A stretch of DNA of 64,000 nt from a virus (taxonomy: Duplodnaviria; Caudoviricetes): positions 128,001 through 192,000 of the IMG/VR virus record IMGVR_UViG_3300031555_003590; one strand, 5' to 3'. The position numbers were made by a program, and so were the translations under genes. Every line of letters begins with the position of its first letter. Positions within the stretch are counted from its first letter, which is position 1. Below are positions 9,286-11,009 of this stretch, in pieces. The notes beneath the pieces are model-generated. The model worked only from the letters and a program-made list of their open reading frames with translations, had not been told where the DNA came from and made no database searches.

Positions 9286-10410
9286 ATGATTACATTAGAT
9301 TGCAAATATAATCAAATTAAAGTATTTGCTGATGAAATTGAATTAGGTGCTGAAAATCAACTTAGAGCTATGTGTGAGCAACCTTTTATGAAAGGTAGTA
9401 AAATTAGAATTATGCCTGATGTGCATCCTGGTAAAGGATCTGTTGTTGGAACTACTATGACAATTAATGATTATGTAATTCCATATGTTACTGGGTCAGA
9501 TTCAAGTTGTGGATTACTAACAGTACAATTGAAGGAGAAAAGAATTAATCTTCCTGAACTTGATAGTTTCATTCGTCAAAATATTCCTCATGGTAGAGAT
9601 GTTCGAGATCGCCCTCATAGAAGTCATGGTAGAATTGATTTATCTGAATTAAAATGTTATAAGAAAATTGATACCAGAAGAGCTAAAGAAAGTTTAGGAA
9701 CATTAGGAGGGGGAAATCATTTTATTGAAATTGATAAAGATGATGAAGAAAATTTATATTTAGTAATTCATACTGGAAGTAGAAATATGGGTTTAAGAGT
9801 TTCGGATTTTTATCAAAATAAAGCATATAATTCTATTGGAGGTAAGAAACAAATTGAAATTCCATATGAATTAGCTCCACTAACTGGTCAAAATATGCAA
9901 GATTATTTAGCTGATATGGAATTTATGAATAGATTTGCTACTCTAAATAGAAGAATTATCAAAGAAGTAATTCTAGATGGTATGAAACTTCATGAAGTAG
10001 ATTCATTTGAAACTATTCATAACTATATCGATGTTGAAAATATGATTCTACGTAAAGGTGCAGTGTCAGCTAAAGCTGGTGAGAGATTAATTATTCCAAT
10101 GAATATGCACGATGGTAGTTTAATTTGTACTGGTCTTGGTAATGAAGATTGGAATTATTCTGCTCCTCATGGTGCTGGTCGTTTATATAGTAGAAAGGAA
10201 TCTGAAAATCATTTTACTCTATCAGAATTTAAGAAAGAAATGGAAGGAATCTTTACAACTTCAGTTACACAAGATACTTTAGATGAGTCTCCAATGGTAT
10301 ATAAACCAATGGAAAGTATTCTCAGAAATATTGATGAAACTGTAAAAGTTGAAAAGATTATTCGACCAATTTACAATTTTAAAGCTAGTGAACATGTTAA
10401 ACGTAAATAG
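9286..10410 (+). CDS. rtcB: RtcB-family RNA 3'-phosphate/5'-OH ligase
   Basis: MPDVHPG, D..CG, LGTLGGGNHFIE, HTGSR, HNY, RKGA, IPMNM, SAPHGAGR, DESP..YK. Confidence 0.95.
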   Translation: MITLDCKYNQIKVFADEIELGAENQLRAMCEQPFMKGSKIRIMPDVHPGKGSVVGTTMTINDYVIPYVTGSDSSCGLLTVQLKEKRINLPELDSFIRQNIPHGRDVRDRPHRSHGRIDLSELKCYKKIDTRRAKESLGTLGGGNHFIEIDKDDEENLYLVIHTGSRNMGLRVSDFYQNKAYNSIGGKKQIEIPYELAPLTGQNMQDYLADMEFMNRFATLNRRIIKEVILDGMKLHEVDSFETIHNYIDVENMILRKGAVSAKAGERLIIPMNMHDGSLICTGLGNEDWNYSAPHGAGRLYSRKESENHFTLSEFKKEMEGIFTTSVTQDTLDESPMVYKPMESILRNIDETVKVEKIIRPIYNFKASEHVKRK

Positions 10411-10421
10411 GAGAAAGGAAA

Positions 10422-11009
10422 ATGATCTATCAAATCAGTTCCGGCCAAGGACCTGCCGAGTGCGAGCTTGGCGTGGCTAAGTTCCTTGGCTATCTGCAAA
10501 ATCACTATGAGATTACCGTGCTGGACTACTCAAGCGGATATCATCCGGATACATACCGCTCGGTGCGCTTCTCTACACCGGACGATCTGAGCGGCTATAT
10601 CGGTTCTGTCCAATGGGTCTGGCAAAGCAGCTACCGTCCCGGGCACAAGCGCAAAAACTGGTTTCTGGATTTCAGCGAGTGTTCATCCGTTATTCCGGAA
10701 ACCTTTGACGAAAGGCAGATCACCTTTGAAACCTTTCGCTCCGGCGGCAAAGGCGGCCAGAACGTCAACAAGGTCGAAACCGGAGTACGCGCAATCTATG
10801 CCTCGACTGGGCTGAGTTCTGTCTGCACCGAGGAACGCAGTCAATTTCAAAACAAGCAGCGTGCCATCGAAAAGCTGAGAGCCGCGATCAAGCTGGAAAA
10901 TGAGCAGCGCAAGGCACAGAACACAAATGATACATGGAAACGCCATACACAAATTGTACGTGGTGAAGCTAATAATAAATTTTATGGTATTGATTTTAAA
11001 ATACAATAA
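10422..11009 (+). CDS. prfH: Peptide chain release factor H (ribosome rescue)
   Basis: QISSGQGPAECELGV, W...S.YRPGHKRKNWF, RSGGKGGQNVNKVETGVR (GGQ), ERSQFQNK; lies directly after rtcB. Confidence 0.93.
   Translation: MIYQISSGQGPAECELGVAKFLGYLQNHYEITVLDYSSGYHPDTYRSVRFSTPDDLSGYIGSVQWVWQSSYRPGHKRKNWFLDFSECSSVIPETFDERQITFETFRSGGKGGQNVNKVETGVRAIYASTGLSSVCTEERSQFQNKQRAIEKLRAAIKLENEQRKAQNTNDTWKRHTQIVRGEANNKFYGIDFKIQ

Follow-up and report, generated by a model that had tools for sequence, protein, structure and literature searches.

We analysed a stretch of 64,000 nucleotides (hereafter the window) of the Caudoviricetes virus (Duplodnaviria) recorded as IMGVR_UViG_3300031555_003590, corresponding to bases 128001-192000 of an IMG/VR record that totals 292,119 bp, is rated 100% complete by CheckV, and has an overall guanine-plus-cytosine (GC) content of 0.283. 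The window carries two adjacent genes, rtcB and prfH, which together represent a variant, intact and carried by a phage, of the bacterial system known to rescue and repair nicked ribosomes. On the sequence evidence we are somewhat inclined to regard the pair as a working rescue-and-repair module of the phage, and its two genes appear to have been gathered in at least two separate transfer events. The rtcB gene (9286..10410, plus strand) encodes a 3'-phosphate/5'-OH RNA ligase of the short form (374 aa) and terminates with TAG. It is followed by an 11-nt spacer (10411..10421), served by its own Shine-Dalgarno (SD) sequence AGGAG (10409-10413) that overlaps the rtcB stop codon, and by prfH (10422..11009, plus strand), an intact open reading frame (ORF) of 195 aa with an ATG start. 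The original prediction, made from the letters and a list of ORFs, had described exactly this arrangement, and its coordinates are exact in the ORF list. The surroundings are viral, with genes for topoisomerase II, an NAD-dependent ligase, split RNA polymerase (RNAP) beta subunits and virion proteins, and the sequencing runs in which the rtcB-prfH stretch is present are animal faeces metagenomes.

RtcB matches PF01139 with 198.8 bits (cut-off 27) and the phage "tRNA splicing ligase" family phrog_1075 with 427 bits. Its residues D72, C75, N144, H145, H162 and H295 correspond to D95, C98, N202, H203, H234 and H404 of the P. horikoshii enzyme, and the counterpart of P. horikoshii H329, which lies outside the printed alignment, is probably H245. 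The His that accepts guanosine monophosphate (GMP) is H295 in the phage RtcB and H294 in EcRtcB2. For PrfH, the profile search that had been proposed together with the original prediction returned TIGR03072 (IPR017509) as by far the best family (164.1 bits, with a curated cut-off of 166.65), the RF1/RF2 models reaching only 72-75 bits. Because the same model assigns 158 bits to genuine PrfHs of Clostridia that are coupled to RtcB, its cut-off does not cover the Clostridia-type PrfHs; likewise, TIGR03073 gives the PrfH-coupled RtcBs of Clostridia 100-106 bits, below its own cut-off. We therefore discarded the NCBIfam cut-offs as a membership test, since genuine Clostridial pairs also fall below them.

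The PrfH sequence is collinear with those of the solved PrfH structures, residues 2-193 with 9mor_A (E 5e-34) and residues 2-192 with 7sa4_8 (E 2e-30), and its 195 aa have the same two-domain build, in which a ribosome-recognition domain is combined with a GGQ domain. All motifs that had been named in support of a PrfH assignment were found, namely GGQ at residues 111-113, GPAEC at 10-14 and RKNWF at 77-81, and Q113 of the G111-G112-Q113 triplet is aligned with EcPrfH Q122. The EcPrfH contacts for the 3'-phosphate end of the cleaved A1493, for h18/S12 and for C1914 are given in section 8 of PMC9304027, and comprise QGP10-12, R52, S53, R83, H85, H86, R88, K89, N90, R181, H184 and R189. Ten of 11 contacts are kept in the phage protein (QGP9-11, R46, S47, R72, H75, R77, K78, N79, R174, H175 and R180), including the tail residues H175 and R180, which align with EcPrfH H184 and R189. 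The phage protein ends two residues past the region aligned with EcPrfH, and the basic C-terminal helix of the PrfH-CT (CgPrfH) class is absent; this extra helix characterizes a subfamily with dual activity and a length of 225-250 aa (10.1101/2025.01.09.632186). By its sequence, the phage PrfH thus falls into the short, EcPrfH-like class rather than into PrfH-CT, and for short PrfH activity has been reported solely on nicked ribosomes (PMC9304027). Taken at the level of family, fold and conserved residues, both proteins look competent.

The function of RtcB2-PrfH in bacteria has been published (PMC9304027, PMC9223846, PMC13166195). The pathway consists of two steps, in which PrfH releases the peptide on ribosomes nicked between A1493 and G1494, and RtcB, once the subunits have come apart, reseals the 16S rRNA (PMC9304027); PrfH speeds the repair, and overexpressed RtcB2 alone can suffice, according to PMC13166195. 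In the phage, PrfH would release the peptide from ribosomes nicked at A1493/G1494, and after separation of the subunits RtcB would ligate the end that bears the 3'-phosphate (or 2',3'-cyclic phosphate) to that with the 5'-OH, via a His295-GMP intermediate. In a jumbo phage, whose infection cycle is long, such a module would keep the translation capacity of the host under attack on the decoding centre, whether the damage came from a host toxin, a defence nuclease or the ribotoxin of a competitor. Defences that cleave rRNA are documented, e.g. the HEPN effector of a type IX retron (10.64898/2026.07.14.738597). In the literature we found none that cuts the decoding-centre site A1493/G1494, and the colicin E3-like or contact-dependent inhibition (CDI) toxins of competitors are an equally good candidate for the source of damage. 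An anti-defence role of the pair is thus something that we infer. The original prediction spoke of a complete kit against rRNA-cleaving defences; the part of this claim that concerns two intact genes borne by a phage stands, but a complete kit presupposes an RtcB2-type ligase specific for 30S subunits, and the RtcB of the phage is placed outside the clade of the tested EcRtcB2.

The two genes differ strikingly in codon usage. The GC content at third codon positions (GC3) is 0.10-0.13 in the neighbouring genes and 0.12 in rtcB, where it is even along the gene, and 0.546 in prfH as a whole. Within prfH, the first 174 codons (10422..10943, plus strand), which encode most of the ribosome-recognition domain and the GGQ domain, have a GC3 of 0.61, and codons 175-195 with the stop codon (10944..11009, plus strand) all end in A or T (GC3 of 0). 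A run of A/T-ending codons as long as this tail was obtained in none of 200,000 permutations, and in bacterial relatives 5-9 of the corresponding 21 third positions are occupied by G or C. Since the tail is AT-rich and yet encodes the conserved C-terminus of PrfH with H175 and R180, it is a genuine, phage-adapted 3' end of a prfH gene, joined in frame to a recent import. According to the model that we favour, an older, adapted prfH would have stood behind rtcB, and most of it would have been overwritten by recombination with a GC-richer allele. The first 174 codons would thus be a recent replacement or import from an allele of gut Clostridia, placed behind a phage-type ribosome-binding site, and the newly altered prfH would now stand beside a long-resident rtcB whose clade is known from mobile elements of gut Clostridia. 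Alternatively, it is possible that prfH was inserted de novo, using an AT-rich prfH end from another source. We do not regard the pair as one inherited operon, but see in it a recent, mosaic import of prfH beside a long-resident rtcB. In the bacterial operons and in the other phage pairs compared, prfH overlaps or abuts the rtcB stop codon, and among the pairs compared the spacer with its own SD sequence is found only in this phage.

An abrupt change of composition of this kind raises the question of an artefact, in which bacterial prfH reads would have been joined to a phage contig during assembly, and the original prediction had itself allowed that the segment might be a chimera with a host contig. 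The only feature that speaks for such a chimera is the jump itself: the GC content climbs from ~0.26 to ~0.50 over a part of prfH limited to ~520 nt. On the other hand, the assemblies of two other Joint Genome Institute (JGI) samples agree with the window at 100% identity across both junctions (L036 over 9757-12531 and L037 over 10335-12528), and in a contig from ENA the same gene order is found, prfH coming after an rtcB of 374 aa. Logan contigs from separate runs span the junction of rtcB and prfH (10149-10490 and 10369-10519) with zero differences, and also span the prfH body, the tail and orf126 (10535-11215), again with zero differences. Moreover, the boundary of the GC-rich part falls within the prfH reading frame, which continues into a homologous, AT-rich C-terminus of PrfH. 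Based on the identical assemblies and on the bridging of the junctions by contigs from independent runs, we rejected the chimera, whose probability we regard as practically negligible.

A second possibility is that the GC-rich segment of prfH is real but represents a recent, neutral passenger of recombination, which is in frame by chance and confers no benefit. This would agree with the lack of any codon adjustment (GC3 of 0.61 as compared to 0.12), with the identity of all copies found (the same PrfH protein is encoded on five contigs), which leaves no record of purifying selection within the lineage, with the existence of complete relatives that are devoid of the gene, and with the presence of other mosaic imports in the same phage. 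Two such imports are located outside the window. One is a protein of 536 aa with tail-fibre repeats (PF22337), encoded on the minus strand at genome positions 4610-6220 (1111..2721 of L200), in which ~340 codons with GC3 near 0.05 are followed by ~180 C-terminal codons with GC3 of 0.5-0.85; its receptor-binding end looks as though it had recently been swapped with GC-rich foreign DNA, and a search for a host lead via this C-terminus yielded a single relative at 53%. The other is an ORF of 511 aa with no Pfam match (minus strand, genome positions 7874-9409, 4375..5910 of L200), in which two GC-rich blocks interrupt a gene that is otherwise of AT type, and which is a second in-frame import. Both genes also set a precedent, within this genome, for the import proposed for prfH. 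We nonetheless find the neutral passenger improbable as an account of prfH, given that the frame, the GGQ motif and the pocket residues are intact on both sides of the junction, that the same sequence recurs in several samples and runs, and that separate, long-kept pairs elsewhere show that the module can serve phages. The operon position of prfH, the intact residues on either side of the joint and these long-kept pairs suggest that the phage makes use of the gene.

The phylogeny of RtcB (a tree of 93 rows) places the phage protein in a clade that we call A (support of 97), and within it in a subclade (support of 98) together with stand-alone copies from mobile elements. The sister subclade contains PrfH-coupled operons (L050 and P0139), whose RtcBs are 73-74% identical to the phage protein and whose genes overlap by 4 nt; the basal member P0226 is not PrfH-linked. 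Clade B is mostly PrfH-linked (25 of its 28 rows) and includes L038 and L042, whose PrfHs are 81% identical to that of the phage, as well as other AT-rich viral pairs. The RtcBs of clades A and B are ~52% identical to each other.

Several observations weigh against a working module. The phage RtcB reaches 101.9 bits with TIGR03073, as compared to a cut-off of 271.8, and is not, according to that model, an RtcB2, the PrfH-associated ligase specific for 30S subunits (SSN cluster 2 of PMC9304027). The PrfH-linked RtcB2s of proteobacteria, to which it is ~25% identical, form a separate, long-branched clade, with the phage protein placed elsewhere in the tree, and the four nearest bacterial RtcBs examined (L045, L046, L049 and P0154) are not PrfH-linked. 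In PrfH, the position of EcPrfH H85 is occupied by Gly74, though it is Phe in CgPrfH and hence variable, and the body of the gene is so recent an import that its sequence cannot reveal selection in the phage. Neither TIGR03072 nor PF01139 has a match anywhere in four complete related phages, and RtcB is found in 666 of the 50,697 phage records that we surveyed. RtcB encoded alone in phages is usually interpreted as an enzyme of tRNA repair, and the RNA repair known from phages is understood to mend tRNAs. It is conceivable, therefore, that the RtcB of this phage is a general tRNA-repair ligase to which prfH was added later, as an independent or idle gene, so that the two would be neighbours rather than one system.

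This possibility draws on the absence of any complete cultured phage with full-length PrfH among the 666 records with RtcB, on the stand-alone nature of the nearest RtcB relatives and the score with phrog_1075, and on the fact that rtcB and prfH are of different ages and lack the translational coupling seen in the bacterial pairs. However, prfH follows in frame directly after rtcB, as bacterial operons have it, and its phage-adapted 3' tail would imply that an earlier prfH existed at that very place. RtcBs of the sister subclade are PrfH-coupled at 73-74% identity, the adjacent genes have stayed together in other phages for a long time, and a short PrfH alone would leave the nick unrepaired, as it is reported to be active only on nicked ribosomes (PMC9304027). 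All things considered, we regard the ligase with an unrelated neighbour as an unlikely interpretation, albeit one to be taken seriously, and continue to prefer a working rescue-and-repair module.

A survey of rtcB-prfH pairs in phages had been put forward with the original prediction, and its outcome is divided. In the 50,697 phage records full-length matches to PrfH come solely from short, unannotated fragments, and no complete cultured phage encodes one; in the open-access literature we encountered no description of a PrfH encoded by a phage. On the other hand, a pattern scan of IMG/VR revealed a full-length PrfH-like gene on nine contigs, and on seven of these RtcB is encoded within 1.6 kb upstream, so that pairs do recur in large viral contigs. 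The pair is rare among sequenced phages and recurs in large uncultured ones. The members L004, L006, L007 and L008 form a subclade of their own, and since both of their genes have GC3 of 0.09-0.16, the pair must have been resident there for a long time. In L008, an AT-rich contig of 288 kb with genes for multisubunit RNAP, the pair is located between the large terminase subunit and the RNAP-beta and virion genes. Among the remaining ones, L002 (31 kb) has matches to virion families of PHROG, and L005 (608 kb) encodes an RtcB2 of proteobacterial type at a distance of 1.5 kb from PrfH; the flanks of L003 and L005 match phage families and contain no hallmark genes, and we count these two contigs with caution. 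Because the RtcB clades and the genomic sites differ, the distribution implies several separate captures of the pair by phages.

Two side observations on these contigs may be added. In L003 (166 kb), the 1-kb gap between rtcB and prfH contains an ORF of 179 aa (4993-5529) with no PHROG match, which is possibly a third component or else an insertion. In L008, the large terminase subunit is encoded in two pieces, the ORFs 1700-3220 and 3499-4332, directly upstream of the rtcB-prfH pair, which may reflect the insertion of an intron or a mobile element.

It is tantalizing to consider that large phages have repeatedly captured the pair as a form of counter-defence that repairs the target instead of blocking the effector, and that the kit is remodelled in the process, an older, phage-adapted prfH having been overwritten in frame, in the phage studied here, by a bacterial allele via recombination with DNA encountered in the host; we offer this only tentatively, and would sooner doubt it than assert it. 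If it is true, the phage copies of the module exchange sequence with those of the host or of mobile elements, counter-defence by repair extends from tRNA to rRNA, and defences or toxins that nick rRNA are predicted to exist in gut Firmicutes.

As to the origin of the two genes, PrfH has hundreds of relatives with 65-84% identity on metagenome contigs of gut type. Those at 80-84% are encoded only on short metagenome contigs, and one cluster at 72% is labelled Clostridia. In the species genomes of GTDB, the best candidate for a PrfH donor is only 63% identical, and in 400 sampled Clostridia genomes the best candidate for an RtcB donor is 56% identical. Relatives of RtcB range from 69 to 81% identity, one of them being labelled Anaerotruncus colihominis; the closest (78-81%, aligned with no gaps) have GC3 of 0.57-0.70 and no adjoining PrfH, and are found in settings with Mu-type transposase, DUF932 and YqaJ. 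In the tree of PrfH, the phage protein belongs to a tight clade (support of 97), in which it is placed, with weak support, below groups that are paired with RtcBs of clade A and of clade B. At an early stage we read this as an import from an operon of clade B type, an interpretation that we dropped, as the PrfH tree agrees with a donor of either type (support of 80). Because bacteria combine closely related PrfHs (of one clade, with support of 97) with RtcBs of both clades A and B, PrfH and RtcB seem to be interchangeable parts, and the swapping of partners is not peculiar to this phage.

With respect to genomic context in gut Clostridia (L045-L049 and L052), we observed that the nearest RtcBs are encoded in elements with Mu-transposase, DUF932, YqaJ and DUF3846, that the nearest PrfH adjoins a Mor-type regulator, and that L038 and L050 are located near genes for dynamin-like GTPases, HipA and PDDEXK proteins. 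The module thus appears to move with mobile elements and within regions that resemble defence islands.

Compared to the RtcB2-PrfH system of E. coli (ATCC 25922/CFT073 type), the phage pair shares the order rtcB-prfH, a short PrfH in which the GGQ motif and the pocket for the A1493 phosphate are kept, and a short form of RtcB whose catalytic His has almost the same residue number (H295 and H294). It differs in being borne by a phage, in the Firmicute-type clade of its RtcB, in the 11-nt spacer with its own SD sequence and in the different ages of its genes. The operons of gut Clostridia (L050, L196, L038 and L042), often located near genes of mobile-element or defence type, have PrfHs 72-84% and RtcBs 52-74% identical to those of the phage, with the same order and lengths (195-196 and 367-377 aa). 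Their genes overlap by 4 nt and share their codon usage, whereas the phage genes differ by 0.5 in GC3 and prfH is a mosaic. The stand-alone RtcBs of Oscillospiraceae from Mu-like or integrative elements (L047; Anaerotruncus colihominis, GCA_009911235.1) are 78-81% identical without gaps and belong to the same subclade (support of 98), but they have no PrfH beside them, and their GC3 of 0.57-0.70 contrasts with 0.12 in the phage. The viral pairs of L004, L006, L007, L008, L003, L002 and L005 likewise consist of intact, adjacent rtcB and prfH in phage contigs; they differ in the RtcB, which is of clade B (or of proteobacterial type, in L005), in the PrfH, which is 33-64% identical, and in their genomic sites, and L004, L006 and L008 exhibit no mosaic.

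In the tRNA repair of phages (Pnkp/Rnl1 of T4; RtcB of Herelleviridae such as Bacillus phage Janet and Listeria phage A511), a ligase also reverses damage to the translation apparatus. The RtcBs of Herelleviridae are 40-44% identical to that of the phage studied here and belong to the same broad Firmicute-type clade, but those phages lack PrfH and the presumed target is tRNA. What is new in the present case is the patchwork origin of the two genes, and the module is amenable to testing with the published E. coli assays. The incorporation of in-frame pieces of genes with ~50-60% GC by a phage with 28% GC also offers a clue to the host or to mobile elements that are co-resident with the phage.

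The setting of the pair was examined by comparison with related phages, located in IMG/VR via the gene for the RNAP-beta fragment (12797..13522). This yielded 17 related contigs with 52-86% identity, four of which, of 264-289 kb, are complete genomes. The gene order in L175-L180, the closest relatives, is topoisomerase II (on the minus strand), orf255, orf126, orf231, orf152 and RNAP-beta, and orf202, orf320, rtcB and prfH (7528-11151, 3.6 kb) are missing at that site. The block that contains rtcB-prfH is a lineage-specific insertion, as had been anticipated by the description of an accessory block. Its left edge is marked by a terminator-like hairpin 3' of orf255 (7565..7598, plus strand, with a 15-pair stem according to the scan), and its right edge by the conserved flanking genes orf126 and orf231 (11152..12230, plus strand), the homologues of which stand directly after orf255 in L175-L180. 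We also considered whether orf126 corresponds to the small gene that follows the stand-alone RtcBs of mobile elements, and rejected this, as the two show no similarity.

The first two genes of the inserted block are orf202 (7628..8236, plus strand, GC3 of 0.118) and orf320 (8255..9217, plus strand, GC3 of 0.125), neither of which has a homologue in the syntenic region of the relatives. The product of orf202 combines a KOW-like N-terminal part with a C-terminal DUF29 domain (Pfam E-value of 7e-7; DUF29 entries of the structure atlas with TM of 0.48/0.59, and weak KOW entries); a KOW fold would hint at binding to the ribosome or to RNA, on thin evidence. For orf320, to which family matches assign no function, no match was found in Pfam, PHROG or PADLOC, no relative in IMG/VR, and nothing usable in the atlas search. 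PADLOC gave no match for the six genes of the island and its flanks, and a scan for sigma-70 promoters gave 46 sites with 42.6 expected, i.e. no signal. Finally, a perfect palindrome of 18 nt, GGTGGAGAATTCTCCACC, which includes an EcoRI site, was read from the sequence between orf320 and rtcB (9232..9249); it could represent a hairpin at the end of a transcript or a protein-binding site.

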